Assembly (NCBI GenBank): GCA_963844965.1 | Contig: CAWJQC010000009.1 | Span: 32,001-96,000 of the forward strand | Length of the DNA stretch: 64,000 nt | Source of the DNA: an uncultured bacterium | Lineage (GTDB): Bacteria > Patescibacteriota > Minisyncoccia > UBA6257 > 2-01-FULL-56-20 | Direction: 5' to 3' | Shown here: positions 11,447 through 51,649 of the stretch, piece after piece | Layout: each line of letters begins with the position of its first letter | Position numbering within the stretch: position 1 is the first letter of the stretch | Made by a program: the position numbers and the translations under genes | The notes under the pieces: generated by a model | The model's database searches: none | Seen by the model: only the letters and a program-made list of their open reading frames with translations | Told to the model about the DNA's origin: nothing

Positions 11447-13266
11447 AGCCGGCCGGAAATCGGCACCTGGAGCACAGCGGCAGCGCTACACATAGACACC
11501 AACGGCAACTCGATCTTCGATCCCGACAACCTCGATTTCACCAACCGCGACCTGGTCTACAGCTTCGGCTTCTCCACCGACAACATGTTCTCCGGCAACT
11601 TCAGCCCGATCGGGGCCGCAGCGGCCGACGGCTTCGACAAGCTGGCCGCCTACGGCAAGATCGGCACGCAATATCGTTGGATCGTCAACACCAATAACGA
11701 CGGCGTGCCGGACGATGGTGGTCAACGACCCGGCGAACATCAACGGCTTGCCGGTCGCCGGCAACTTCGACGGCAACGCCGCCAACGGCGACGAGGTCGG
11801 GCTGTTCGACGGCGCAACTGGTGGCTCGACACGAATCACGACTACAAAGTCAACACGAAAATCGTCAGCTCGTTGCGGGGTTATCCGATCGTGGGCGACT
11901 TCGACGGCGACCACAACTTCGACCTGGCGACCTACCAGGTCAACCCGGTCAACAAGTTCTTCTTCGAGTTGGAGCCGCTAGTGCCACGCCGGTGTTCAAG
12001 AGCATCGATGCCGCGAGCCAGTTCGGCTACATTGGCGTTCGCTCACGGCCGGTCGCGGCCGACATCGAGCGCGACGGCACGACCGACGTGGGGCTGTGGG
12101 TGCCGGACCGCACCGGCGCCACGGGCGACCACATCGGCGAATGGTCGTTCCTGCTCTCCAATTTCGTAGACGCAGCAAGGGCACGGTCAGTACGCTGGAC
12201 CATCAGTTTTCGCCGACGCCGTTGAGCACGACCTGCTTCGCCCGCTTCGGCAACGAGTTCCCTGCCGATGGTGGGTAATTTTGATCCGCCGCTGGCCAGC
12301 GTCAAGGCGGGGCCGGCGATTTCCGGCGTGGTGCTGACCGTTTCCGGGACGAAGCCGACGGTCACTTGGGCGGTGGACGCCGGCCGAGCATTGCCGCGGC
12401 GACGTTGTTGGTGGACGGCAAGGCGGTGGCGGTTTCCAAGCTATCGGGCAGCGCGACGCACGGCAGCTATTCCGCCGGCGCTGGCGGGGTTGAACCTGGC
12501 GGCGGGCAGTCACAGCTTTGTGATCAAGGCCACGGACTCGGCGGGCACGCCCGCCACGACGCAATGCACGGGCACGTTCGACGTCGTCGGGCCGACGATC
12601 AAGGGCGTGGCACTGTCGGTTGCGAAGGGCCTACTCACGTGGAACGCGGTTTCGCCGAACGGCATGGCCGGCGTTGCCCTGATGATCGACAACAAGTCGG
12701 TGTCGAAGATCGCGCTACGCCGTCGGAATTACGCTGGGACGATGGGTTTGCCGGGGATCGGCACCACAAGTACGTCATCACGGCCACCGACAAGACCGGC
12801 AAGAGCGTGACGCTAAGCGACAGTTTTGTCGTTACCGCCCCGACGATCAGCAACGTAGCGATAGCGGCTGCGAAGGGCTTGATCACGTGGACGGCTGCGG
12901 CTTCGCGGCGTGGCGAGTGTTGGTCTGACGATCGACGGCAAGCGAGTGTCGAACACAAGCGGTCCCAACGCGGCGGGGAACTGCTACGGGTTGGCGGGCA
13001 AGCTGCCGGCGGGCACGCACAAGTACGTCATCACGGTCACTGACAAGGGTGGCAAAGCGGTGACGCTTGGCGGTTCGTTCGTGGTGAGCAAGCCGTCCAA
13101 GGCTGTGCAGAGCACCGCGATATCGAGTGCAAGCCGGCTCTGCGTTGTCCGATTCGGCCAAGGTTGCCTGGCTTTACGATCTTGGCGGTTTGACCGGCAC
13201 ATCGTCGAGTACGACCAAAAAGAGCACGTCCGCCCAAGCCGCGGACACCGTTATTGCCCGCTACTG
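11447..13266 (+). pseudogene. High-GC FG-GAP / Ig-like repeat protein, 5'-truncated and fragmented across more than 8 frame changes
   Basis: Frames alternate (ORFs 11585, 11715, 11821, 12096, 12268, 12366 and 12910), each carrying real-looking repeat sequence (VAGNFDGN…, GDFDGDHNFDLATYQ…, KYVITATDKTGKSVTLSDSFVVTAPTISNVAIAAAKGLITW…). The reading frame is open back to the junction with no start codon. Confidence 0.5.
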
Positions 13267-13689
13267 AGCAGGGTTACAAGGATCGAGAAGCGGTTGAGGC
13301 GACAAGCGACATTGCCTTGTCGTAAGGATAGCATGCGTCGGGACGAGGGTTTCGAAATGGCACTATTTCGGGAGCGAACGCCTGGTCGCAGGATGGGTGC
13401 ATTTACTTACAGGATGTTTCGCCGTGAGAGTTCACCCGACAGGCGGTTGAGGATTTTTTTGAGGGTTGTGCCAACCATCTCCTGATTACCAATTGAGGTT
13501 TGGTGTTAAGAATAAGTGAAACTTGGCTCTCCGACTCGTCTGTATCGGGCGGGGATCGGCGAATCGGACGGGCCCGTCTGCCGGAGCCGTTGATCTTATA
13601 CCAGTCATTTAGAGTCGATCACCGCCGGCTCAGCCTTGCTCTGAGCCAGCCCAATAAGGGAGATTTCTGCCATGTGGTAACACCAAGCC

Positions 13690-16600
13690 ATGGGATTCCG
13701 TAACAACTCGCGACGTTCCTCCTCCGCCACGCGGCAGAAGTCGAAGCCATTCTCGATGCGAAACCGACACGCAGCATTTGAACCCCTCGAAGAGCGTCAG
13801 TTGCTGAGCGTCACGCTGACGGGCGTGCCGGATTGGGTCGCTAAGGGTACCGCCCCGATCGTTGCCGGCAACAGCGACAACGTTACGGGGATGACGCCCG
13901 CCACCAGCCTGGAAGTCGGCGCTGTGAACGCTCTGGCGGTCGACCCGACAAACACCAAGCATCTCTTTGCGGCCACCGTGAATGGCGGCATCTGGCAAAC
14001 CAACGACTTCACCGTGGCGAACCCGACCTGGACCACCAGCACGGATCTCATGCCGTCGCTGGCGATCAGCGCTATCGCCTTCAGCCCCACTAACAGCAGC
14101 GTCATCTATGCCGGAACGGGCAGCTACAGTTCCACGGGTGGCGGTGTGGGCGGGGCCGGCATGGGTGGCGGCTCTGTCGGGCTGTACAAGTCAATCAATG
14201 GCGGGGCCACCTGGCAGGTCATCGACCCGAATGGCATCTTCACCGGACTGCGCAGTCCGGCGAGTTGTCCCGAGACGCTTAACGGAGGCCAAACCGTCTT
14301 TGCGGCCGCGACCGATACGGCGGCCGGGAGCGGCGGCGTCTACCGCTCGGACGATGGCGGCGGCACCTGGACGCGGCTCTCGGGCGATAACGGCCTGCCC
14401 AACGCGGGCGTCACCGACCTGGTGGCTAATCCGGCCAACGCCAACCAGTTCTTCGCTGCGGTCGCCGGCGGATCCGGCGGCGCCGGCGGCACGGGCGGCA
14501 TCTTCAGCCTCGATCTATCGGTGAATACAACCTGGACGAACATTACGGGTAATATCAACACCATCAATCCCGGCGTGCTCAACAATGCGATCCGGGTGGA
14601 GTTGTCTGTCAGCATCGCCGGAGTGAATCCGATCTGGGCGAGCGTGATCAACAGCAGCGGCTTCTACGCCGACGTCTTCCGGGCGCCGAACGCCGCATCG
14701 CCCACATGGGCGGCCGTCGGACCCGGCGGTTTGCTTCCGGACGTTCTCCAAGGCAATCAGGGTGGCGTTCACGGCTCCATCGAGGCCGACCCCAACTCCG
14801 ACACGGTCGTGTACATCGGCGGCGATGCAAAGCAGACTGCCAGTCCCTTTAGCGGGTATCTTGCCCGAGGTGATTCCGGCACCAACACCTGAACCGGCAT
14901 GACCCCCGTCGATACCGTGACGGCGAACCCTGGCCTGACCGTCATCCCGACGGCTAATGGCGTCACCGCCGCCCCGCATCCGGACACCCGCAACCTGGTT
15001 TTTGCCTCTGGCGGAGTCCTGCTGGTATCGTGCGACGGCGGCGTCTACCAAGCCACAAACCCGACGGGGGCCGGGCCGGCGATGGCCTGGACTTCGATTA
15101 ACGGCACCCTCGAAGACAGCGAGTTTTACACGGTTTCCTATGACAACCGAAACACGGCAGCCACGGCCGACGATCTAATCGAGGGGGCCGCCCAGGACGA
15201 CAGCTCGAGTGAGCGGAACACGGCTGCCGTTTGGAACACCCAGACAGGCGGCGATGGCACCGTCGTGCTGGCTGACCCCATCAGCGACACACGCTATTTC
15301 TCGATGCAGAACTACTTCATGGGTAGTGTCATCGGCGGGGGCGGCGTCAATCGACCCGCCGGCACTGTCGCGGGCACGGGGGGCAAGGTTCTGAACGCGG
15401 CTAACGCCGGCACCAAGGCCGAGACGTTCCCCTTTACCCCCGCCTTCCAAATCAACCAGGGGGACATCGGCAGCGGGGCGGGCACGGCACGGGTTATCCT
15501 GGGGGGCAATCAGACGCTCTATGTCTCCAGCGACCAGGCAGCCAACTACACCTCGATCGGCGGCACAACTGCAAATAACCCCGACCCCGTGACCAACCTA
15601 ACCGCCCGGGTGATCACGATCGCGTTTGGTGCGGCGACCAATACGAATGCCTGCTACGTCGCTATGTCCGACGGCAACGTCACCAAGACGACGGACATCA
15701 CCACTGCCGGCGGTGGTTTCAGCCTCACGACCTTCCTTGCGACGGCCGGCGGTGAGGATGGCGCAGGGTATGGCGATCGATCCCAACGACGCGAATACGG
15801 TCTACGTAATCACTCTGACGCGCAGCCTGCGTGACCACGGACGGCGGCACTACGTGGGCCAACATCACGGACAACCTGGCATCCCTGTTCACTCCGGGCT
15901 TTGCCAGCAACGTGAGTCCGAGTCAGGAGCGGGGGATCACCCTGTTCAACAACGGCACGGCAACGAAGGCCGACGACGTGCTGTTGATCGGCGGTCCAGG
16001 CGGTGTCTTTCGGCGTCTGGCCGCATCGCCCCCGGGTGGCATTTGGAGCCAATATGGCGTTGATTTGCCCAACGTGCTGGTCGACAGTCTGCAATATGAC
16101 CAACTGAGCGATACGCTTCTGGCTGGCACTTTTGGCCGCGGCGACTGGACGGTTAGCAGCGTTGCCACCACAATTAACGCCGCTGGCGTGATGGTGATCT
16201 GCGGCGACCAGGATTTTGCCAACGAAGACGACACCTTTAAGCTGGTCCGCGACCCCGGCGATCCGTTGCTGTTGGATGTGTTTCAGAACAACACCACCAC
16301 TACCCCCGACTTCCAAGTGCCGTTGGCGGTGGTCCAGCAGATCGACGTCTTCGCCGCCGGCGGCAACGACAACTTGATTGTTGACAGCAGCAACGGCCTG
16401 ATCAGCGTCGCCGGCGGCATTCGTTACGACGCCGATCACGGCTGCCCGGGCGACACAGCCGCCGGAATCGGCGGTTTCGACCGCCTCACCCTCACCCAGA
16501 ATCTGACGGGTGGCCCCGCCATCGCTTCCGATCAATTGGCGCCGGGTGCCACCCCGGGCGACGGCATCAGCACCGTCAACGACACGGCCGGCAACGTCCA

Positions 16601-19223
16601 GACGATTGATTTCCAGTACCTCGAACCGGTTGTCGATAACGTCCCCTCGCCGACGTTCGATATCGCCGCCGTCCCCGGATTGGCGAGTCTGCTGGACGCC
16701 GACAACGCCATCGACTATACGGCCAGCCAGATTCTGCTTACCGGCGGCCGCGTGACGATCGACAATTTCGAGCCGATCGAGTTCGAGAACAAGGTCACCT
16801 TGGTCATCGACGCCGGGGCCGGCAGTGATGCGATCAATCTGAACAATCCCACCACGCCCACCGGCCTGGCGGCCATCACCGTCAACGGTGGCGACCCGTC
16901 GCTCGCCGATACGATCACCGTCAACGGCATCAAGGGGGCTACGGACCATTTCGTGGTGCTGCCCACGGCCGCAGGCAACGGAAACATTTTCGACACCGAC
17001 ACAGCGAGCGCCAAATATCGCCCCCGAGGTTCACTATTCCGGCATGCAAGGGGTCAACGTCGTGGGCCAAAACGCGGATGCGGACGCCTTGGCGGACGGA
17101 GGAACTGTGGGCGACGACTCGTTCACCTATAATCCTGGCACGACCGCGTCTTCCGGAGAGATTCACGGTTTCAACAGCGGTTTCTCCTTTGGGGCCTTGA
17201 CCTTTAACGGAATCACCGGCTGGGTCACGATGGGATCGCCTTTGGTGAACCTTACCGCAGGTTCGGCGACCGGCCTCCTCGTCCTCGGCGGCCACGACAC
17301 GGTGGTCATCGACGGGACGGCGGCTGACGATTCCTTCAATTGGGACAATTCTCTTGTATTCCTGCAGGTGCGAGTGGACACTGGCGGCGACCTTCACACC
17401 CCCATCGTCCTGGCCGGCGACCAAATCGTTGGATACGTTTCACACGTCATTGTGCAGGGGCTCGACGGCAACGACACGTTCAATGTGATTCCTGGGGGGG
17501 CCCCTGGCAGTGACTTGTTCGACATCCGCATCGAAGGAGGGGATTCCGATAGCTTTACCGACACACTAAACCTCAGCGGCGCCGTCGGCCCGGTGGGGGT
17601 GAATCTGGCCGACAGCACCGTGCCCTCCGACACCTCGATAACCGGCTACGGCAGCACCGTCACGCTCACCGGCGTCGAGTTGGTCCACATGGATGTCAAC
17701 GGCACAAACCCTGACGGTCACGGGCACGGCGGGCGCGGACCAGTTCAACTTCACGCCCACGGCGCTGGGCGTCGGCAGTTTCAAGGTCACGACCACCGGC
17801 GCCATCGTCGAGACCAGCCCGCAATTCACCTATACCGGCGTGGCGGCCACGGGCGTCACGCTCAACGGCGGTACGGGCGGATTCGACGTGCTGGGACTGA
17901 CGGCCACGGCCGGCAACGACACGATCAACGCCGTGCAGACCGACGCCACGCATTTGAGCTTCACCCTCAACGCGTTCACGCAGCCTTTCATTTTCGCCAC
18001 GCCGGCTTCGGTGCCAGGGGTCAACATCTACGCCGGCGCCGGCGATGACTTGATTCGCGTGAGCGTGACCAATGCGCTGGAAAGCACCACGCCGAGCGCC
18101 AGCCTGCGGTTCACGGTCGACGGCGGCGAGCCCAATGCCAGCGATCGGCTGCTCGTGAACGACGACGGCATTGGCGACCTGACTATCCTTCGCCAGGGCC
18201 CCGATGATCGAAGCGGCTCGGTGACGGTGGGCGTTCTGAATCCCGTTGTCTATGAAAACGTCGAGCGTCTCGACGTCACGCCGCTTAATCCCATCACCGG
18301 TGGGACCGGCACTGACGGCAACGGCCGCATCTTCGTCATGCATCAGAATCCGTTCGAGACCAACGACAGCCTCGCGAACGCACGGCGCAGATCGAGCGGC
18401 TGGCCGATTCGCCGACCAGCCCCACGATCGACCCGGCCGGCCTCAATACCCCTCCGTTTACGGTCAGCGGCGACGAAGATTGGTACGTCTTCCGTCCCAA
18501 GTTCACCACGGACTACCAAGTCCGCATCCTGTTCCATCGCATCGTGGCTTTGGCGAACGGCCGGCCTGGCCTGCCGGGCACCGGCGACTTGTCGCTCGAC
18601 ATCTACGACGCCAACGGGGCGTTGATCGTCTCCGGCGTGGCCGATGGAAACGGCGACAACCGCACGGCCATTTTCGGGGCCACGCCCACCGTGGCACAGT
18701 TCGCCACGATCTATATCCGCGTCAAAGGCGGAGAAGCGCCAGCTGGCGCCTCGGTCAATCTCTACGACTTCGACAACATCACCGCATTGACGTTCCCGGT
18801 GCCACCGGGGGTCGGCAACGTGGACGTGTTCGGTCCCCAGGTCACCGGCGTGGCCATCACCACCGCGCCGGCCTACAACTTGTTCGATCCCAAGGAATTC
18901 ACACATGGCGGCCTGGGCCCGACGCCATTGGTAAACGGCCTGACCATCAGTTTCAAGGATTTACCGGCACGCACCCCGGGCTTCGTCTATCCGGCCCTCG
19001 ATCCGGCCACGGCCAGCACCCGGGCACTTATGTGGTCAAGGGAGATGCCAACGGCATCGTTCAGATCTCGCAGATCATCGTGACCAACAACCCGCCGGCG
19101 GTGGGACAGGTGCCCACGGCGACGGTCCAACTGGTTTTCGCCCAGCCGTTGCCCGACGATCGCTTCACGTTGACGATCAACGACAATCTGCTCGATCCGG
19201 CCACCGCGTCTATAAATCCCTGA
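13690..19223 (+). pseudogene. Giant BNR/Asp-box repeat extracellular protein with a Planctomycetes-type N-terminus; contains 1 in-frame TGA and at least 4 frame changes
   Basis: The N-terminus MGFRNNS…MRNRHAAFEPLEERQLLSV matches the planctomycete 'LExLExRxLLS' signal-anchor motif. It has repeated SxDxGxTW boxes (SINGGATWQV, SDDGGGTWTR, TTDGGTTWANI). ORFs 13690, 14899, 15831, 16888, 17693 and 18246 are colinear pieces of one gene. Confidence 0.55.
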
Positions 19224-19275
19224 ACCGCCGCCTCCAAAATTTTCTGCGTTCTTTCCGTAAACATGGAGTAATCGC

Positions 19276-19346
19276 GAATAATGCGAATCTATTTTAAATA
19301 ATGCGAATATTATTATTAGTGTTATTTGCTATCATTCGCATTATTA
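19276..19346. repeat. AT-rich region with three copies of AATAATGCGAAT (two direct, one inverted); putative operator
   Basis: GCGAATAATGCGAAT at 19276, AAATAATGCGAATA at 19299 and the inverted ATTCGCATTATT at 19335. The region lies between the end of the high-GC segment and the gene at 19490. Confidence 0.4.
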
Positions 19347-28947: not shown

Positions 28948-29952
28948 CTAACCGTGGCGCACGACAACCACGTCGCCGTCCTGAACCACATATTCTTTTC
29001 CTTCCAGCCGAATCTGCCCTTTTTGTTTCGCTTGCACCCAGCCGCCGAGTTCCAGAAGTTTTTGCCAGTTGATGACTTCGGCTCGGATGAAGTTCTTCTC
29101 AAAATCCGTATGAATGACGCCCGCCGCCTGCGGCGCCTTTGTACCGCGCTTTATCGTCCAGGCGCGCGTTTCGTCCTCGCCGGTCGTTAGAAAGCTTATC
29201 AAATCCAGAATTTTGTAGGCTTTCTCTATCAGAATCGGGAGCTTGTCGGACGCACCTAGGTCAGCCACGATATAATCCGCCCCCAACTCCCCTATTTTCT
29301 TTATCAATTCCGGCTTGACTTCATTTTCCTTACCGTTCAGGAGGTAAATCTGCCGCTTGGTGGTCAGTAAGTTCAACTCTTTCACGATTTCCTCGTCTTT
29401 ATGTTTCAAGATCAAATTGCCGCCGTTCAATTCCTTCCGCACCACCTCCAAGACAGCCAGGTTTTTCATCGCCTGCTTGTCGCCTGTGCGCGCTTCGCCC
29501 CCCAATTTTCCGAGGCGCTTATCAATCGTTTCCAAATCTTTCAAGGCAAGTTCGGAATTTGTAGTGATGAGATCGCGCAGGGCGTCAACTGAATTTTCCA
29601 CGTGTATAATTTCGGGGTTTTCAAATGTCCGAAGAACTAACACTATCGCCTGCGTGTCGCGGATGTGAGCCAAAAATTGGTTGCCTAACCCCTCGCCCTT
29701 GTAGGCGCCGCGCACGAGCCCGGCGATGTCGTAAAACTCAACGACCGCTGGCACAACCTTTTTGGAATTGCTCAATTTGGCGAGTTTTTCCAGGCGCTCG
29801 TCCGGAACCGACACAATGCCGACATTCGGGTCAATCGTCGCGAAAGGATAGTTGGCGATATTCACTTCTTGCTTCGTTAAAATTTTAAACAGGGTGGATT
29901 TGCCAACGTTGGGTAGTCCCACGATGCCGATTGAAAGTTTTTGACCCGACAT
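28948..29952 (-). CDS. ychF: Ribosome-binding ATPase YchF
   Basis: GIVGLPNVGKSTLF G1 motif, Obg-like GTPase core, and C-terminal TGS domain (…RLEGKEYVVQDGDVVVVRH). Confidence 0.9.
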   Translation of the reverse strand: MSGQKLSIGIVGLPNVGKSTLFKILTKQEVNIANYPFATIDPNVGIVSVPDERLEKLAKLSNSKKVVPAVVEFYDIAGLVRGAYKGEGLGNQFLAHIRDTQAIVLVLRTFENPEIIHVENSVDALRDLITTNSELALKDLETIDKRLGKLGGEARTGDKQAMKNLAVLEVVRKELNGGNLILKHKDEEIVKELNLLTTKRQIYLLNGKENEVKPELIKKIGELGADYIVADLGASDKLPILIEKAYKILDLISFLTTGEDETRAWTIKRGTKAPQAAGVIHTDFEKNFIRAEVINWQKLLELGGWVQAKQKGQIRLEGKEYVVQDGDVVVVRHG

Positions 29953-31523
29953 AGTTTAGATTTCTAATTGGTATACCGCCGTATACATGCAATTCTTCTT
30001 GAGTGCCTACGACTTTATCTATAACATCCCTAACTATCGTCTTTTTTCCCTCAAAATTCAAGCGTGCAACGACTTCCGCCGCGCACTCGGCAAATTCCCT
30101 TACCTCGTTCCATTGGGGCAAAATAAAGTCATTCTGGCGCTCTCCCGCCTCTGGCGGCTTTGGCATCCTGCTTTCCAGTAAAGCAACCCGTGCCCGTAAA
30201 TCGCTCTTGTATTCCTTCAGCTTCTCCATGCCTATCAGCCCCGCCCCGTATGCCCTGTCATAGCGAGCTTCCTCGTCTTTCAACTTCTCAACGTCCCTTT
30301 TGAAATTGAAAATGGATATATCGGGGCGCGCCGCGCTTTCTTTCTTTTTCCCGATAAACTTCTGCGCGTTTTTCATCATCAGTTCCGGCGAAGTCATAAT
30401 CCCTGCCGTCTTTTTCCATACGAGCGCATCGGCTATCCTCGCGTTTATTCCCCGCTCGGCGCACTTCGGAGGCAAGGGGAAGCTGTGAACCCTATCCGTG
30501 CAGCGATAATAAAGATGTTTCCCGCGCTGCGGGCCTTCTCCGGCCCGCCTTCTCCCGCATCCGCAGTAAATCTTCCCGCTCAAAAGATACTCGTTTTTCC
30601 GGTTTCGCTGGCACTCCGCGAAATTTACCGCAAGTTGCCGCGCCGCCCGCTCAAATAATTCTCGGCTGATGAGGGCGGGTGTCGTTATTTTTATCCACTC
30701 CTCCTCCGGCCTCACCTTGCGGCTCGTCTTTTTGATTCTCCGGTAGCCCTCTTTCTTAAACGGATTCTCCGGCACGACGGCATAAGAGCTTCCATAATGC
30801 CCTTCGCCTATGTAGGTTTTATTCCTCAAAAGCGTTGAAAGGGTGCTGGTATTCCAAACGCCCCGCGCGCTCCAGCGCGGCGCTATGCCCGCTTTCATAA
30901 GCTCCTTCACAACCTGCCGCAAAGTAAGCCCGTCATCGGCAATCCACGAAAATATCTTTTTAACAACGGTTGCCTCTTGTTCGTTGATTTCATAGCAGCC
31001 ATGTTTCCCATCCGTTTCTTTTTTCGGCTTAAAAATATAGCCGTAGGGAGCTTCGCTGGTAATAATATGCCCCTCTTTTGCCTTCCGCAGTTTCCCAAGC
31101 CGGAAGCGCTCGGCGATTTTCGCCCTCTCATACTCGGCAAAAAGCCCCCTAACACCGTGCAGGATTTTCTCCTCGCTATTTTTCGGACGGAATGGTAACG
31201 AACAATACTTCAACTCCCGCCTCCCGTAGTTCGTCCATCACCAATTCCTGATAAGAGTAGCGGCGGGCCAACCTATCTGGGTCATAAATCAAAACCGCTT
31301 CCCATATCTTCTTTTTCACGTCCTGCCGGAGCTGGTCGAGTTGAGGCCGCACGAGCGTGTCCCCGCTCCAGCCGTTATCAATGTATTCCTGCACGATGGT
31401 GTAGCCATTTTTCACGGCAAACTCCCGAACGGCGACAAGCTGGGTTTCAATAGTGCCTTCATCCGGCGAGGTGCTGACACGGGCGTATATGGCAATCAAT
31501 TTTATGATGGCGGCTTCGTTCAT
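29885..31523 (-). CDS. Large serine recombinase (resolvase catalytic domain + recombinase domain + zinc ribbon/coiled coil), split by a homopolymer frameshift near 31179-31183
   Basis: ORF 31176..31523 carries the catalytic domain with the YARVST serine motif. ORF 29885..31213 carries the recombinase domain and the C4 zinc ribbon (CGCG…CTDR…C). The two join if the A5/T5 run is one base shorter (…VTIPSE-NSEEKILHGV…). Its C-terminus overlaps the ychF start by 68 nt. Confidence 0.8.
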
Positions 31524-31747
31524 CGTTTCGTGTTCTTATGTTTGCTTAAAAACTTTTGATATTCGCTTTTCGGTATGCGCCAGAGCGCCGTCCCTTTGCC
31601 GAGTTTATACCCGACCAACAGCCCCTTTTGAAGCCAGCGTTGAACTGTGCGGGGATGTATCCGCAGATTTTTAGCGATTTCGTCTTTCGTGAGAAACTCC
31701 ATGCTTTTAATTCTATTCCCAATAGTCGCAGTTGTCAAAATTGTCAA
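31520..31747 (-). CDS. Excisionase-family HTH DNA-binding protein
   Basis: 75-aa ORF with …LTKDEIAKNLRIHPRTVQRWLQKGLL…, overlapping the recombinase start by 4 nt. Confidence 0.6.
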   Translation of the reverse strand: MTILTTATIGNRIKSMEFLTKDEIAKNLRIHPRTVQRWLQKGLLVGYKLGKGTALWRIPKSEYQKFLSKHKNTKR

Positions 31748-31807: not shown

Positions 31808-33334
31808 TTAGAGGGTGGGGTAAATGAGCATCCTCCTTCTATCGTCAGGGTCTGCTTCTTGGGCTATCAGTCCGGCATTTTCCAGCATCGGGATAATCTG
31901 TTGTCGCAAAAGCCAATCTGGGAGCGGCCGTCCATACACTTGGAAGTGTTTTTGCGTTATTTCCCGTCTTGTAAGCCCGCATGGGGCGCTCGCCATACCA
32001 TCATCATTCCTGCTTTGGTTCTTCTCCTCCCATAGAGGAATAATCACTTCGTTGAAAATCTGGTATACATACGGCGGCAGGTTCAGCTCTTGGCTTTCAG
32101 ATATAGCGTCCCACACTTTAAAGGCATTTTTGATGTCATCCTCATTCGCCACGATGGTTGAGCCGTCTCTCTCCCTGAACCAAACATTCAACAAGGCAAA
32201 TGCCTTAATAAGTGATAAAATACGTCCGATGTCTCGCTGGTGGCGCGGCTTCAACCTCTTGTTTGCGCTGAAAAATCCCTCCCCCACTTTTTCCGGCGTG
32301 CCTATTTTTATGTCGCTTATATGCGCCTGCCTAATTGCCAGTATCCGCTCTTTAAGAAGTTTGCGCTCCGGCTTTTCGTCCAACGCCAGTTGGTATGCTT
32401 CATTGTCGGCTTCTTTTCGTATTTTCTCATAAATTGCCTCCCGTATCTTTTCTTGGTCTGTCTGGGGACTTAACAATATAAATCTCGTCGTTTCCTGCTC
32501 GTCTGCTTTTAGTCCCGCCGTGCAAAAAATAACGGAGGGAAACCCCCTTAAAAATATATTTTTCGTTTTTAGCCCGCCTCGCTGTGTCTTATCGGTAATC
32601 TTGAGCTTTATCTCTTTTCTATCGTGCGAAAGTAGCGGGCGGAGATGTTGGAGAAGCAAGGTATGTGGCTGGTCAAGAAAAATGAGAATCTTACGGGACA
32701 AATCAACGACAAGTTCATTCGTCTCTTTTCTATACTCTTTTGCCTTATCGTGGAAAAATGCCGTTGGTGAGCAGTAGCCAAGTTCAATAATATCTTCTTG
32801 CGGAAATAATTGAGCAATTTCTGTTGGGATATAAGATTTACCAGTTGAAGAGGGGGCATTAAAACTGATATTGAGTTGTGCGTTCTCGGTATAGGCGGAA
32901 AGCTCGCAAAGGAAAGTAATGAGCTTATTCTCTTCGTCTTTTTTGATGGTTATGCCAAGTATTTTAAGAATCTCTTCGGATGAAAGCGGCTTGAATTGCG
33001 AGGTGTCAATCGGCATTTCCGGCGCTGGTTCGGAGTTTGTGTCCGCCAAAGGAGGTGTTTCGGCTGCATCTGCTATCGCCCTTCTCTCTTTAGGAATGGT
33101 CTCTTGGGTTTCCTCAATTCCCATTTCCTTCAGGATTTCGGTCAGTTCTGCTTCTTTTCTACAAAACCAACAAGTGCCACGCCCAGTTTCTGTATTGATA
33201 TGTAGCGCATCCTTCGTGCCAGAGACAGCATCGGCGCAATAAGGACAGCCGATTCTTAAGAAGTTGCCCACGACTTCATACTCTATCTTATTTTTGTTGA
33301 GTAGTTTCTTTAGGTCTATTAGATTTATTTTCAT
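31808..33334 (-). CDS. Primase-helicase-like replication protein (N-terminal zinc-binding motif + P-loop NTPase)
   Basis: CPYCAD…CWFC zinc motif, Walker A FNAPSSTGKSY, and a Walker-B-like ILIFLDQ. Confidence 0.55.
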   Translation of the reverse strand: MKINLIDLKKLLNKNKIEYEVVGNFLRIGCPYCADAVSGTKDALHINTETGRGTCWFCRKEAELTEILKEMGIEETQETIPKERRAIADAAETPPLADTNSEPAPEMPIDTSQFKPLSSEEILKILGITIKKDEENKLITFLCELSAYTENAQLNISFNAPSSTGKSYIPTEIAQLFPQEDIIELGYCSPTAFFHDKAKEYRKETNELVVDLSRKILIFLDQPHTLLLQHLRPLLSHDRKEIKLKITDKTQRGGLKTKNIFLRGFPSVIFCTAGLKADEQETTRFILLSPQTDQEKIREAIYEKIRKEADNEAYQLALDEKPERKLLKERILAIRQAHISDIKIGTPEKVGEGFFSANKRLKPRHQRDIGRILSLIKAFALLNVWFRERDGSTIVANEDDIKNAFKVWDAISESQELNLPPYVYQIFNEVIIPLWEEKNQSRNDDGMASAPCGLTRREITQKHFQVYGRPLPDWLLRQQIIPMLENAGLIAQEADPDDRRRMLIYPTL

Positions 33335-36136: not shown

Positions 36137-38115
36137 CTAATTACTGAAAAAACGATAGCAAACTCCATGTATTGTCTGGATACTTATCGTCTCGTTATAT
36201 ATGTTATTATCCCCTATACTGGCGCAATCTACCTCCTCAAATATGCCCGTAGAATAAGTCCCATTATTATCGTGAATGGTATTATACATAATTGTGTTTG
36301 CATCAAAAATACCATCGCCATTATTTTGAATATTGTTTAGCAGTACCTTGTCGCCGTCAAAAATTCCCGCATAATGGCGGCCTGTCCCACCGGACCCATC
36401 GGGAGCTTGCCATATACATACCCGCCTTTAGCTGAATTTTGAATTGTTAAATATTGAATTGTGCTGTTTTTTGCCCCCACTACTGTATTCCCGGTATTAC
36501 TACCGTCTATTATTGTTTTATTTTCATCTTCTCCGTAAATACTAACTCCATCTTTTAGCACAACATTTTCATAATAAGTACCGTCGGCTATTTTAATATT
36601 ATCTCCGCTTTGAGCGGCGTTTATTGCCGCTTGAATTGTTGGATAATCGGCTGGCACATTAATGACATTTTGCAATTGCGTAGAAAAAGATTTTTGATCG
36701 CTCGTAGCCGTATTACCACTTTTATCAGAAGCGTTTATTTTATAATTATAAATTGTCCCCGGTAATAATCCTGTAACAGAAATACTGTGGCTCGTTGAAA
36801 GCGTGGAATCAGATAATACTAATACGTCATAATCTCCAAAGGGAGAATATGATAATTGGATGGTACTGGGTTCGTCTGTTGTGAGTGAAATCACCGCAGA
36901 ATTTGTGGTTGTATTAGATGATTGGATATTAGATATTACGGGTGGCATGCTATCGCAAGAGGTCGTCTCGTCAGGTTTTCCAGTAGTAATTCCACAATGC
37001 ATCAAATCGTTGCAGGTTCGTGTTTGTTGAGAATTTGCACAAGTGCTCCATGAGCCACATTGCCAGTTAGGAGTACACGTACATGATTGCGTCAAAGCCG
37101 GTTCTCCGGTTGAAACGCCGCAACTGTTTGAATCGTTGCAGGTTCGTGTTTGCATAGAATTCAAGCAGGTGTTCCAATTTGTGCATTGCCAATTTGGGGT
37201 ACAATTAACCGTTGTTGAACAACTGGTAGTTTGAGTTTGCCCGCCAAAATTAACAGTAAGATTGGCTGTTTTAGTACCTGCTTGAGAAAAAGAATTTGAA
37301 CAGCTTGATTTAGACCCAACACAATCACCAGTCCAAGAATAAATATAAGTACCAGTTCCTCCTAAAATTGCGACAGAGGAAGAAAATGTTACCGATTGGT
37401 TTGTTTGGTATGAGTTTGAATTTGCCGAACAAGAAACGGAAAGCGTTGCTGTGGGCGGAGTGCACGATTGAGTTAAAATTGGCTCTCCGGTTGCAACTCC
37501 ACAATTATTTGAATTGCTACAAGTCCTCATTTGTTGGGAATTTGCACAAGTGCTCCATGAGCCACATTGCCAATTTGGAGTACATGCTGGTGGCGTAGTA
37601 TTTTGTTGAATTTGCTGAAGCGTTTGATTTGTTTGCTGTTGGGCCGCTAACTGTTTTTGCAACAAGGCAACCTGCTGCAGAAGTGCGCTCAATTGCGACT
37701 GCAGTGAATTATTAATGTCATTCGTAGTTGCGGGCGGCGTTGGAGTTGGCGGCGTTGAACTGGTTTCCGCAATCGCCTGCGCGTTGGATGCCGAAAGCTG
37801 TTGCGACAATATCGCGTTTGCTGCCGTTCTTGTGAGCGGCCCGAAATATCCCGCGGGTGGCGTTATGTCTTGAGTAGTTTGGAATTGCTTGACCCCCGCG
37901 AGCGTCAAAGAAAAGAAATTGCCGCTGATTGGGCCGGAATATACGCCTTGAGATGTAAGAAATTCTTGGAGCTTGGTAACGTCGGAATCGCCCTGTATGC
38001 CGAAATATAAATCTTTTGTGAATAAGGTTTGCGCCTTGACCACTGGAATACCAAAGGAAGCCACGAGAAGAACTGCGATAACAAATTTTTTCATATTCAT
38101 TTTCATTGTTTTCAT
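36137..38115 (-). CDS. Secreted multidomain protein: signal peptide, peptidoglycan-binding domain, 3 Cys/Trp-rich repeats, FN3-like domain and right-handed beta-helix; split by a homopolymer frameshift near 36359-36363
   Basis: PG_binding_1-like LQEFLTSQGVYSGPISGNF…, three copies of CTPNWQCGSWSTCANSQQTRTCNDSNSCG, and PbH1-type repeats (IKIADGTYYENVVL…). After the annotated stop the other frame continues with beta-helix repeats (…FDGDKVLLNNIQNNGDGIFDANTIMYNTIHDNNGTY…). Lengthening the T5 run to T6 joins the two frames. Confidence 0.6.
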
Positions 38116-38128
38116 GGCACTCTTTTTT

Positions 38129-38332
38129 CTAACGAACAACATTAACCATCGCACAATCTCCTTCGTAACACTTTAGAAGGTCTAATATACTGCCTGCAGG
38201 GTTGTTGCTGTAAATATCGGATGTTGTTTTATAAATCTTTTCCAACTGCGAGGAAATGCGAAACAGTAAAACAATCGCCACTATCAGCAAAGCGACTATT
38301 ACCCATAGGGGGCTCGTAGATTTTAAATCCAT
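38129..38332 (-). CDS. Small membrane protein (holin-like, speculative)
   Basis: 67-aa ORF with 1 TM helix. Confidence 0.35.
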   Translation of the reverse strand: MDLKSTSPLWVIVALLIVAIVLLFRISSQLEKIYKTTSDIYSNNPAGSILDLLKCYEGDCAMVNVVR

Positions 38333-38338
38333 AAAAAT

Positions 38339-38554
38339 TTATTTTTTATCAGCCCAAAGTTTGTAAAGAATGAAGGTAATAATTCCAAAGAAAATAAAGA
38401 AGAATGGAACAGTGATTAAGCTCCCAATTATAACTGTATAGCCGTTGAGAGAATATCTCCCATCAAGAACGCCCAGAAAATATGAAGAATAGAACCCAAC
38501 AATCGGAGATAAAATTAAATAAATAGTGATGATTATTTTTTGAGATTTATTCAT
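38339..38554 (-). CDS. Small two-TM membrane protein (holin-like, speculative)
   Basis: 71-aa ORF with two hydrophobic helices. Confidence 0.4.
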   Translation of the reverse strand: MNKSQKIIITIYLILSPIVGFYSSYFLGVLDGRYSLNGYTVIIGSLITVPFFFIFFGIITFILYKLWADKK

Positions 38555-48520: not shown

Positions 48521-49689
48521 ATGGCAGAGACCAAGAAGTCAAGAACGGTCAAGAAGAGGGTTGCGACAAGATCAAAGCGAAAGTCCCGAGTTTCCTCTGC
48601 GGCGAAGAGAACAAAAAAAACGGCTGGACGCCGACGTGTTTTGCCGCGCAAACATATTGAACATATCCTGGAGAGATTCCCCGGCAATCCGATCATTCAG
48701 CCAAACGCCGAGAACCAGTGGGAAAGCAAAGCGACCTTCAACCCGGCGGCTCTCCACGACAAAGGAAAAATCCACATCGTCTACAGAGCGATAGGCGACA
48801 ATGACGTGTCCGTCCTGGGCTACGCCACAAGCACCGACGGCACGAACATAGAAGAAAGATTGCCTCATCCAATTTACGCCAAAAAAGTGAGCGCCGCGGA
48901 CAATTCGGAGCGGTGTCTTCGGGATTTACAATCGCCGATCTTTTACATTTCGGGGGGCGGCTGGAACGGCGGCTGCGAAGATCCGCGCCTCACGCGCATA
49001 GGTGACACCGTCTATATGCTCTACACGGCTTTTGACGGCTGGGGGTCGCTCCGAATAGCGCTGACCTCAATAAAGACGAATGACTTCCGCAACAGAATTT
49101 GGAAATGGAAAGAACCGGTCCTGATTTCCCCGCCCGGAGAAATACACAAGAACTGGGTGATTTTCCCGGAGAAAATAAACGGCAAGTTCGCCATCCTGCA
49201 CAGCATATCGCCGAAAATCATGATTGACTATTTTGACGGTTTGGACGACTTAGATAACGGGATTTTCATTCGCAGCCGTTACGGCGGGGAAATGCGAAAA
49301 AATAAATGGGACAGCCACCCGCGAGGAGCCGGTCCCCGCCGATAAAAACGGGATATGGCTGGCTTCTCCTCTATCACGCGATAGACCATAAAGACCCCGG
49401 CAAATACAAGCTTGGGGCTATGATTTTAGACCTCAAAGATCCGACAAAAATCCTTTATCGCTCGAAAAAACCGGTTTTGGAACCGGATGAATATTATGAA
49501 AACGAAGGGTTCAAAGCCGGCGTGATATATTCCTGCGGCGCAGTCGTCGTCAACGGCCGGCTTATCGTTTACTACGGCGGAGCCGACTCGGTAAGCTGCG
49601 TGGCCACCGCCAAACTTGACGAATTCCTGAAAGGGCTCATTTCCGACAAAGAACCGAAACTTACGCGCCTGCAGCGATTAAAAAGCTAA
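48521..49689 (+). CDS. GH130-family glycoside phosphorylase/hydrolase, split by a C-run frameshift at about 49334-49337
   Basis: ORFs 48521..49345 and 49306..49689 join as …NKWDSHPRGAGP-PPIKTGYGWLLLYH… if the C4 run is C5. GH130 motifs GGCEDPRLTRIGDTVYMLYTAFDG and GYGWLLLYHAI are present. Confidence 0.7.
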
Positions 49690-49724: not shown

Positions 49725-51649
49725 ATGTTCGTCTTCAAACGTTCGGAGGAAAATCCGATATTAATACCGCAAACCGAAAATTTATGGGAAGCTGAGGCAA
49801 CCTTCAACGGTTGCCCTGTTCCCGACGGGAAAAAAACTCATCTCCTCTACCGGGCGGTTTCCTCGGGGCAAATAGTGGACGGAAAAGAAATCAAAATATC
49901 TTCCATCGGCTGCGCCCTGTCCGATGACGGCGTGCATTTCAAAAACCGCAGGCAGTTTATCAAGCCGGAATACGAATGGGAACGCTTCGGCTGCGAAATC
50001 TGCGCGTGACCAAGCTCGGCGACAAATATTATATTTTCTACACAGCACTTTCCCAGTATCCCTTCAGGGCGGATGGGATAAAGATAGGCGTAGCGATAAC
50101 GAAGGACTTCAAGAAAATAGACGCGAAGTACCCGGTGACAACTTTCAATTCAAAAGCGATGGCGCTTTTCCCCGAAAAAATCGGCGGGAAGATCACGGCG
50201 GTGCTCACAGTGAACACCGATAAGCCACCGGCCAGAATTTGCCTTGCGCAATTCGACAGAGAAGAACAAATCTGGTCCAGCGAATACTGGGAAGAATGGT
50301 ATGGTAAGCTTGATTACCATGTATTGCCGCTCGCGCGGAAGTCAACCGACCACACCGAAGTCGGCGCGCCGCCCATTAAAACCAAATATGGATGGCTTCT
50401 GATTCTACCATATATTTCCAACTATTTCTTGCCGCCGCCCATATTCGGCATAGAGGCGGCGCTTCTGGACCTGAAAAATCCGAGAAACATAATTGCCGCA
50501 ACGACCAGCGCGCTGCTCTACTCGCGCGAAGAATACGAGAAATTCGGGAACGTGCCCAATGTCATCTTTCCGTCGGGAGCTCTTGTCAGTCACGGCAATC
50601 TCAACTTATATTATGGCGCGGCGGACACAACTTGCGCTTTAGCCACCGGAAAATTAAACGAGCTGCTGGAAGACCTGCGCTCGAAGCGGCCGCGCGCGGC
50701 GCGGCTCAAACGCTTTGCCGGCAACCCGATAATCAAACCGAAACCGGAAAGCGCGTGGCAGTCAAAAGCAACTTTCAATCCCGGAGCCATATACGCCGGT
50801 GACAAAATACACCTTCTCTACAGAGCCATGGACAAAGACAACACTTCAACCTTCGGATACGCGGCAAGTTCGGATGGTTACACGATGGATTACCGGCTGC
50901 CGCAACCGGTTTACACGCCGCAAGCCGATTTTGAAAAAAAACTGGTTCCCGGAGCGAATTCCGGCTGCGAAGACCCGCGACTCACGCTCATCGATAAAAC
51001 GATCTATGTGTGTTACACCGCTTTTGACGGCAAAAATCCATGGCGTATAGCTCTGACCTCCATATCGTTGGACGATTTCCTGAGCAGGCGCTGGAACTGG
51101 AAACGCCCGGTTCTCATTTCTCCGCCGGGAATTGACGACAAAGACGCCGTTCTATTTCCCAAAAAAATTGGCGGCAAATATGTGTTTCTGCACCGCCTTG
51201 GCGCGGACATCTGGATAGATTTTGTTGACTCACTGGAATTTGACGGCAAGAGATGGCTGCAGGGGAAAATAATATTGACGCCGCAATCCGGACCACAGGC
51301 CTCAAAAAAAATAGGCACCGGCGGGCCGCCCATAGAAACAAAGTATGGCTGGCTTCTCATATACCACGGCATATCCAGAGATGAGGACAATCATTACCAC
51401 CTCCGCGCCGCTCTTTTAGATAAAAAGGATCCTGCCAAGATTATCGCGAGGACCCACGAACCCATTCTGGAAACCACGGAATATTATGAAAAAGGCGGTA
51501 ATGTGAACAACGTTGTCTTCACCTGCGGTTCCGTCGTCGTCAACAACACTCTTTTTGTCTATTACGGCGGCGCGGATACGGTCGTCGGCGTCGCCACGGC
51601 GAATTTTGATGATTTTATGAAAAAATTATCCCGCGAGAAATATGCTTAG
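49725..51649 (+). CDS. Tandem double-GH130-domain protein, split by a frameshift at about 49995-50000
   Basis: ORFs 49725..50009 and 49976..51649. The GH130 signature occurs twice (…KLGDKYYIFYTA…KYGWLLILPY… and …CEDPRLTLIDKTIYVCYTAFDG…KYGWLLIYHGI…). Confidence 0.7.

Follow-up and report, generated by a model that had tools for sequence, protein, structure and literature searches.

Thrombospondin type-1 repeats (TSRs), found in TSP-1, properdin, C6–C9, F-spondin and MIC2/TRAP, are small extracellular domains of eukaryotes that span 50–60 residues, contain six cysteines, carry conserved tryptophan and arginine residues on neighbouring strands and are used in tandem in adhesive or stalk regions. 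The disulfides of group-1 TSRs link C1–C5, C2–C6 and C3–C4. One evolutionary review treats TSP1 as a domain of the animal lineage that was passed to apicomplexans (PMC3417536), and in our literature searches no publication connected TSR-like domains with the candidate phyla radiation (CPR) or Patescibacteria. Two further groups of described proteins are relevant here, namely the PG_binding_1 wall proteins (PF01471), which include SleB-type hydrolases, phage endolysins and Patescibacteria proteins, and the NosD/CASH-type beta-helix proteins (NosD PF05048, DUF1565, TIGR04247 and TIGR03805). The gene compared with these groups lies on the minus strand at 36137..38094 of a 64,000-nucleotide stretch of DNA (the window; contig CAWJQC010000009.1, positions 32,001 to 96,000) from an uncultured patescibacterium. 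Its product, an exoprotein of ∼652 residues after repair of one nucleotide, joins parts of known kinds in a new combination.

A previous description made from the letters and open reading frames (ORFs) of the window (the sequence-only reading) had proposed a secreted multi-domain protein, and domain matches and inspection of the sequence bear this out. We lean towards interpreting the protein as a Sec-secreted surface fibre of a Parcubacteria-type CPR bacterium that is non-covalently anchored to the wall, is carried as cargo of an apparent small serine-recombinase element and ends in a glycan-binding beta-helix tip.

Domain order and exchangeable parts of the exoprotein

The gene corresponds to a 605-codon ORF on the minus strand (38154..36337). 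The public gene call starts with MKK at 38094 and ends at 36337, giving a protein of 585 residues, and an identical protein is on record; the ATG at 38115 chosen in the sequence-only reading is in the same frame as the MKK start. Translation of the three minus-strand frames shows that the ORF frame terminates at 36339–36337, while the −1 frame, without a stop between ∼36430 and the TAG at 36139–36137, reads HYAGIFDGDKVLLNNIQNNGDGIFDANTIMYNTIHDNNGTYSTGIF... and adds three further rungs like those at the annotated C-terminus. The repaired ORF encodes ∼652 residues from MKK or 659 from the ATG at 38115, as assembled from the ORF list, tblastn with the closest full-length relative (P0001, described below) and repair tests. 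Its domains are, in order, a signal peptide, PG_binding_1, a glutamine-rich helical stalk, one cysteine module, a PKD-like immunoglobulin (Ig) domain, two further cysteine modules, an FN3-like domain and a short NosD/CASH-type beta-helix. All features of the gene given below are on the minus strand.

The putative Sec-type signal peptide (38029..38094; MKKFVIAVLLVASFGIPVVKA, followed by Q) was read from the sequence; P0001 and P0002 show the same pattern at their N-termini. The PG_binding_1 domain (37822..37989) that the sequence-only reading had placed at the N-terminus matches Pfam PF01471 with E 2.2e-6 and 28.2 bits, above the gathering cut-off of 23, over residues 56–111 and profile positions 2–56 of 57. 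AlphaFold models it as a compact helical bundle (helices 44–55, 69–81 and from 93 onwards), with a predicted local distance difference test score (pLDDT) of 94–98 in the ten-residue blocks of residues 31–100. The window protein thus has an N-terminal PG_binding_1 domain above the cut-off in common with the described wall proteins, but it has no hydrolase domain, and the partners of PG_binding_1 are adhesin-type spacers and a beta-helix. The glutamine-rich segment that follows (37621..37839) is predicted to be alpha-helical (helices 93–118 and 131–165, pLDDT 52–81) and may form a coiled coil; the coiled-coil-type Pfam matches to it are weak and at noise level.

Between module 1 and modules 2–3 lies a domain of ∼85 residues (37207..37461) that had been overlooked in the sequence-only reading. 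It matches PKD_4 with E 0.003 and 18 bits (cut-off 27) and PKD with E 0.013 and 16 bits (cut-off 23.5), and AlphaFold models it as a beta-sandwich with pLDDT ∼70–82. Because the scores of PKD (PF00801/PF18911) fall under the gathering cut-offs while the model is a beta-sandwich, it is labelled here a PKD-like Ig domain and no more. It is 59–78% identical to blocks in P0020, P0002 and P0037.

The closest full-length relative, P0001, is a metagenomic protein of 609 residues (Logan SRR22388283) with a like order of signal peptide, PG_binding_1, glutamine-rich helix, FN3 and NosD-type beta-helix. Identity to the window protein is 48% in the N-terminal part and 65% over the segment that covers FN3 and the first part of the beta-helix. 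Exactly where the window protein has its module–PKD–module–module block, P0001 has a Pro/Thr-rich linker, which indicates that the block serves as a spacer. The beta-helix of P0001 is uninterrupted and ∼100 residues longer. Its gene lies 24 nucleotides from a large serine recombinase, and the rest of that neighbourhood is unrelated to the window.

Comparison with a set of 250 proteins revealed how unevenly the parts of the protein are shared. The N-terminal 115 residues, with PG_binding_1, match 98 of the 250, at 62–77% identity among the best, whereas the PKD block is common to four proteins and the beta-helix to P0001 alone. Homologues of the whole protein carry the names Staskawiczbacteria, Jorgensenbacteria, Wolfebacteria, Parcubacteria group and other Patescibacteria. 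Anchor and stalk at the N-terminus therefore form a conserved cassette that is fused to many unrelated C-termini. Outside the window, the 126-kb contig also encodes a paralogue (P0008) whose signal peptide, PG_binding_1 and stalk are 74–81% identical to those of the window protein and whose distal part is a different one, an FN3/Ig array, which suggests that distal domains are exchanged in cassette-like fashion within one genome.

The conserved N-terminus, the unrelated distal parts and the replacement of the spacer in P0001 together point to a display scaffold in which a wall anchor and a helical stem are followed by a rigid spacer and a tip, both of them exchangeable, and it is this pattern that favours a peptidoglycan-anchored surface fibre. 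In such a fibre, PG_binding_1 would hold the protein on the peptidoglycan of its own cell and the glutamine-rich helical segment would project outwards and may oligomerize. The first cysteine module, the PKD-like Ig domain, the two further modules and FN3 would form an extended, disulfide-stabilized stalk that may itself bind glycans, and the short right-handed beta-helix at the tip would be the likely glycan-binding head, directed towards a host cell or the environment. We infer anchoring to the cell's own wall rather than that of a host, a role as stalk and adhesin, and glycan binding by the tip from this architecture.

The cysteine module and the thrombospondin type-1 repeat

The module is a unit of 41 residues with six cysteines and two tryptophans. 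Sequence comparison places module 1 (CTPNWQCGSWSTCANSQQMRTCSNSNNCGVATGEPILTQSC) at 37462..37584, module 2 at 37081..37203 and module 3, which directly abuts module 2, at 36955..37077, and no further copies were found anywhere else in the 64-kb window. The sequence-only reading had noted three near-identical copies with six cysteines and conserved tryptophan; the number, the cysteines and the tryptophans stand, but the copies are merely similar, with 66–73% identity in protein and 69–79% in DNA over 104 nucleotides. A tandem-repeat finder run on the gene returned trivial short repeats only, since the modules are partly dispersed and partly abutting and are too diverged in DNA for it to detect.

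From 118 distinct 41-residue copies in homologues the consensus is CTPNWQCxxWSxCxNxxQTRTCxDxNxCGxxTGKPxxxQSC. A profile built from 74 copies was searched against 1.84 billion protein-cluster representatives and matched 8,488 of them at E≤1e-3, of which 2,893 also reached E≤1e-10, with 1–18 matched stretches per protein among the 150 listed; a scan of genome contigs with a single protein gave only five loci. The module is therefore very widespread and not peculiar to the window protein, and its predicted fold resembles a known adhesive domain, the TSR (see below), which fits the sequence-only reading's idea of a binding module. Named members recovered from ten clusters number four, of which Gracilibacteria and Komeilibacteria contribute one each and a single Micrarchaeota (DPANN) cluster two entries (P0159/P0250), and the module is apparently concentrated in ultra-small episymbiotic lineages. 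Among the module-bearing proteins, 104 of 127 have a hydrophobic N-terminus, and the partner domains in 78 proteins found via the module alone include the archaeal-type S-layer domain PF07752 (8), PG_binding_1 (5), Ig-like domains, CARDB, FG-GAP and proteases. These partners and the mostly hydrophobic N-termini mark the module as a general extracellular building block. With a DPANN protein among its carriers and PF07752 co-occurring in 8 of 78 proteins, it spans the divide between bacteria and archaea among ultra-small lineages. The module matched no family in Pfam (newest models 2025), NCBIfam release 20 or the PHROGs, and its profile returned noise from the PDB sequences, where HSTX-I and scytovirin scored E 0.08–0.26.

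The pattern of cysteine conservation was followed in 858 copies detected with a hidden Markov model (HMM). Each of the six cysteines is 84–98% conserved, as are tryptophans at positions 7 (95%) and 12 (92%), a spacing of five, and a single arginine at position 22 (87%). All six cysteines are present in 671 of the 858 copies, and exactly C2 and C4 are missing in 99, while none of the twelve commonest patterns is a loss of C2 only or C4 only. In smaller classes, C1 and C5 are missing or C3 and C6 alone are retained. The loss of cysteines in pairs supports three disulfides and argues against a metal cluster, and from this co-variation we infer the pairing C1–C5, C2–C4 and C3–C6. A disulfide-bonded extracellular module is also what had been proposed from the sequence alone. 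In the window gene, all 18 module cysteines, the tryptophans and the arginines are intact.

AlphaFold2 run on the alignment of 74 modules gave a model with pLDDT 89.8 and short strands, in which the predicted fold is elongated, three-stranded and antiparallel, as in the TSR. When this model was compared with known structures using Foldseek, the four best matches in the PDB were TSRs and the best match in BFVD was a phage protein carrying the name 'Thrombospondin type-1 (TSP1) repeat'. The likeness extends to other properties, both domains being small and extracellular with six cysteines (presumably forming three disulfides in the module), both having conserved tryptophan and arginine on neighbouring strands and both being used in tandem in adhesive or stalk regions. 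In addition, hhalign pairs the module segment W-S-x-C...Q-T-R-x-C with the equivalent TSR segment.

The differences are nonetheless considerable. The module has 41 residues compared with 50–60, W-x4-W with a cysteine in between in place of WxxWxxW, and a single arginine in place of RxRxR; the CSxTCG hairpin of the TSR is missing, and the cysteine positions differ, as does the proposed C1–C5, C2–C4, C3–C6 pairing from that of group-1 TSRs. TSRs occur in eukaryotes, whereas the named carriers of the module are CPR bacteria and one DPANN archaeon and include no eukaryote. Several results also weigh against the resemblance. The likeness is that of a predicted model with low scores (Foldseek E 0.5–5); hhalign against seven PDB-verified TSRs gave a probability of 18% with P 0.0013 over 19 columns; no TSP1-family HMM matched the window modules at E≤1; and the module profile found no TSR among PDB sequences at E≤10. 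The 74 modules searched against TSP1 HMMs gave single noise-level matches to TSP1_ADAMTS (E 0.11) and TSP1_CCN (E 0.41), and the WxxWxxW and RxRxR ladders were not found in the 858 copies. Because these ladders and an HMM match were both looked for and are absent, the module is described here as TSR-like in its predicted fold and is not placed in the TSP_1 family, although TSP1 signatures in PROSITE, SMART or SUPERFAMILY may already catch it. Homology with the TSR is thus not shown, and convergence is possible.

A bolder proposal, that the 41-residue module is a true prokaryotic relative of the TSR and the main surface-adhesion unit with which ultra-small episymbionts (CPR and DPANN) grip host-cell glycans, is unlikely on this evidence. 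If it were true, the supposedly animal and apicomplexan TSR would gain a prokaryotic counterpart or origin, and thousands of proteins would become candidates for host attachment.

The beta-helix and its frame break

The C-terminal part of the protein begins with the FN3-like domain (36694..36933), which matches Pfam fn3 with E 1.3e-4 and 22.5 bits, just under the cut-off of 25; the same region matches Pur_ac_phosph_N with E 7.6e-4. It is 64% identical to the FN3 of P0001 and matches 33 of the 250 proteins at E≤1e-3, the best being P0001, P0099, P0115 and P0062, the last three of which carry a precomputed PF00041. The AlphaFold model of this region is poor (pLDDT only 45–56). The first part of the beta-helix, in the annotated frame (36425..36681), matches NosD_copper_fam (TIGR04247) over profile positions 1–68 with E 1.7e-10, beta_helix_1 (TIGR03805) with E 1.2e-3 and Pfam DUF1565 (PF07602) with E 5e-4 and 19.8 bits against a cut-off of 20.3, and is also supported by its homology to P0001. 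The second part (36137..36375, −1 frame) consists of three GIF-type rungs and is 45% identical to residues 427–509 of P0001. In total the helix has about six rungs and ∼170 residues. An FN3-like domain and beta-helix repeats at the C-terminus had been predicted in the sequence-only reading, and both find matches, that of the FN3 just short of its threshold.

Compared with NosD/CASH-type proteins, the cap and first rungs match and 'NN..GIF' rungs are visible in the window protein. The helix of P0001 clears the Pfam cut-off for NosD (PF05048; 25.2 against 23.6 bits), but that of the window protein, at ∼170 residues, is far under whole-family cut-offs and has no link to nitrous-oxide reductase maturation. 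The helix had been called pectate-lyase-like; it is better described as a generic right-handed beta-helix of NosD/DUF1565 type, as no pectate-lyase, glycoside-hydrolase or other catalytic family was matched in Pfam or NCBIfam at E≤1.

This bears on the proposal, raised as one option in the sequence-only reading, that the protein is a depolymerase. Under that explanation PG_binding_1 would dock on the wall of the host and the beta-helix would cleave host surface polysaccharide in the manner of a tailspike, acting as a lysin that helps the episymbiont or the element to reach the host surface. The right-handed beta-helix is the scaffold on which polysaccharide lyases and hydrolases are usually built, a NosD/beta_helix_1-type match covers the start of the helix in the window protein, the gene lies within an apparent mobile element, and PG_binding_1, which here gives a weak SleB-type match, is common in wall hydrolases and endolysins. 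Yet besides the lack of any catalytic match, the longer helix of P0001 has no sequence relative in the PDB, the N-terminal cassette has non-enzymatic Ig/FN3 arrays as its usual fusion partners, and neither relatives nor the CTPNWQC-coding motif were found in IMG/VR viral contigs. With about six rungs the region is ∼100 residues shorter than its counterpart in P0001, which makes a depolymerase role speculative. We consider this explanation improbable and favour the surface fibre.

That the beta-helix continues past the annotated stop in another frame, within the coordinates proposed for the gene, is confirmed by the three-frame translation and by tblastn with P0001. The alignment runs in the ORF frame, at 65% identity, up to '...LTIQNSAKG' (36424) and resumes in the −1 frame, at 45% identity, from 'HYAGIF' (36376). 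The frame change, a deletion of one nucleotide relative to an intact gene, is thereby confined by the tblastn frame switch and repair tests to 36376..36424, where one base added to any of four runs of three nucleotides (G3 36421–23, C3 36401–03, G3 36395–97 or G3 36386–88) restores a single ORF. The T-run at 36359–36363, which had been suspected as the frameshift site, is not the cause, since upstream of it the homology ('HYAGIF') has already passed into the new frame. Programmed −1 frameshifting was considered and rejected, as 36376–36424, inspected by eye, contains no slippery heptamer (X XXY YYZ) in the ORF frame and the window's other frame breaks suggest indel noise.

There are at least four such further breaks in the 64-kb window (at least five in total), one in a serine recombinase at an A5 run, one in a GH130 gene at a C4 run and at least two in a repeat protein at 12.3–13.5 kb, and both of those that could be placed are at short homopolymers. 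An assembly indel is therefore likelier than independent decay or a separate gene and is, from the sequence, most likely the cause of the break. If the break is real, the protein of this copy carries the first beta-helix rungs only. It would then be possible to see the gene as a decaying pseudogene in a dead element, with a genuine frameshift, a genuinely short C-terminus and no functional full-length product. The break does fall inside the beta-helix, the element's recombinase is likewise out of frame, and the ∼100 C-terminal residues that P0001 has in addition left no remnant in any frame of the window (tblastn). Decay nevertheless appears doubtful, as the 585 codons upstream are stop-free, the conserved residues of all three modules have been retained, and breaks also occur outside the element, in the GH130 gene at a short homopolymer and in a GC-rich block, a distribution that technical indels fit better.

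Genomic setting and implications

The sequence-only reading had taken the organism to be a CPR bacterium, in agreement with the best matches of its cysteinyl-tRNA synthetase, which are to Parcubacteria, Minisyncoccia and other Patescibacteria at ∼60% identity. To the left of the exoprotein gene lie, in order, ychF, a split serine recombinase, a small helix-turn-helix (HTH) gene, genes for proteins of 508 and 258 residues, two excisionase-like HTH_17 genes and a gene for a ClpP-like protease that matches PHROG head-maturation proteases. The large serine recombinase (29885..31535, minus strand), at the left end of the putative element, was recognized by Pfam Recombinase, Zn_ribbon_recom and a partial Resolvase match as well as by a PHROG integrase match; it is split over two frames at the A5 run 31178–31182, and removal of one A gives 'VTIPSENSEEKIL'. 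The 3' end of the recombinase gene and the start of ychF share 68 nucleotides, suggesting that the element integrated at the 5' end of the latter gene. The 508-residue protein (31808–33334) has an N-terminal CxxC...CxxC zinc finger and a Walker-A-like 'APSSTGKS' and is possibly the replication protein of the element; neither it nor the 258-residue protein has a Pfam or PHROG match, and the former has no relatives in IMG/VR viral contigs. The apparent integrative element, together with the large serine recombinase beside P0001, agrees with the earlier placement of the gene in an element, of which it is plausibly cargo.

The ClpP-like gene is convergent with the exoprotein gene and separated from the stop of the beta-helix (36137) by 144 nucleotides, and promoter and terminator scans gave nothing above chance at this 3' end. 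On the other side, directly upstream of the exoprotein gene, two small ORFs for predicted membrane proteins of 67 and 71 residues from the ORF list (38129..38554, minus strand) are possibly co-transcribed with it; upstream of them are a promoter-like site (38754–38727) and a terminator-like hairpin (38783–38763), and apparently chromosomal genes follow.

These two ORFs, on the same strand and directly upstream, raise the further explanation of a prophage lysis cassette, in which the small membrane proteins would be holins and the PG_binding_1 protein an endolysin-like wall binder. PG_binding_1 does occur in endolysins, and the ClpP-like neighbour resembles head-maturation proteases. The exoprotein, however, has a signal peptide of its own, no catalytic domain and 650 residues of adhesin-type modules, no relatives of it turned up in IMG/VR viral contigs, and no capsid, portal, terminase or tail genes were recognized among the element ORFs scanned. 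A lysis cassette is accordingly a most improbable explanation, and the surface fibre is retained.

Other observations nevertheless count against the surface fibre as proposed here. The PG_binding_1 domain could equally bind the wall of a host. The beta-helix scores 40 bits against a whole-protein cut-off of 300 for NosD_copper_fam and just under the cut-off for DUF1565, has pLDDT 32–56 in most blocks and falls short of the P0001 helix in length. The right-hand border of the element was not located and attachment sites were not found. Another family member, P0009, lies in an ordinary chromosomal setting, so carriage on an element is not a trait of the family, which as a whole is not element-specific. 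Finally, no experiment on or ligand of any family member is known.

Elsewhere in the window, a block at 11500–19300 has a GC content of 0.56–0.64, compared with 0.42–0.51 in the remainder, and has no Pfam matches. It encodes pieces of Asp-box-like (SxDxGxTW) and Ig-like repeats, in units that fall in three different frames with at least two frame changes at 12.3–13.5 kb, and an N-terminus ('FEPLEERQLLSV') reminiscent of secreted proteins of Planctomycetota. The spacing between HrcA and CorA is 10.6 kb in the window and 1.4 kb in a related Parcubacteria contig. Given its deviant GC, its content and this spacing, the block is either an insertion of foreign DNA or a chimera of the assembly. At 48521–49689, a gene of GH130 (mannooligosaccharide phosphorylase-like) type is split into two ORFs, and addition of one C to the C4 run near 49337 gives 'GAGPPPIKTGYGW', matching the intact double-GH130 gene next door (49976–51649).

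Little is known so far of the attachment of CPR bacteria to their hosts, and most CPR surface proteins are unannotated. The window gene belongs, as an ordinary member, to a large set of modular surface proteins anchored by PG_binding_1, and the notable novelty it exposes is the 41-residue disulfide module, which is abundant, present in at least 8,488 protein clusters, undescribed in the copies of Pfam and NCBIfam searched, and similar in predicted fold to a domain that one review assigns to the animal lineage (PMC3417536). If the module were defined as a family, a definition into which the TSR-like fold and the proposed disulfide map could enter, thousands of proteins would be annotated as extracellular, and structural and glycan-binding tests would have a concrete target.

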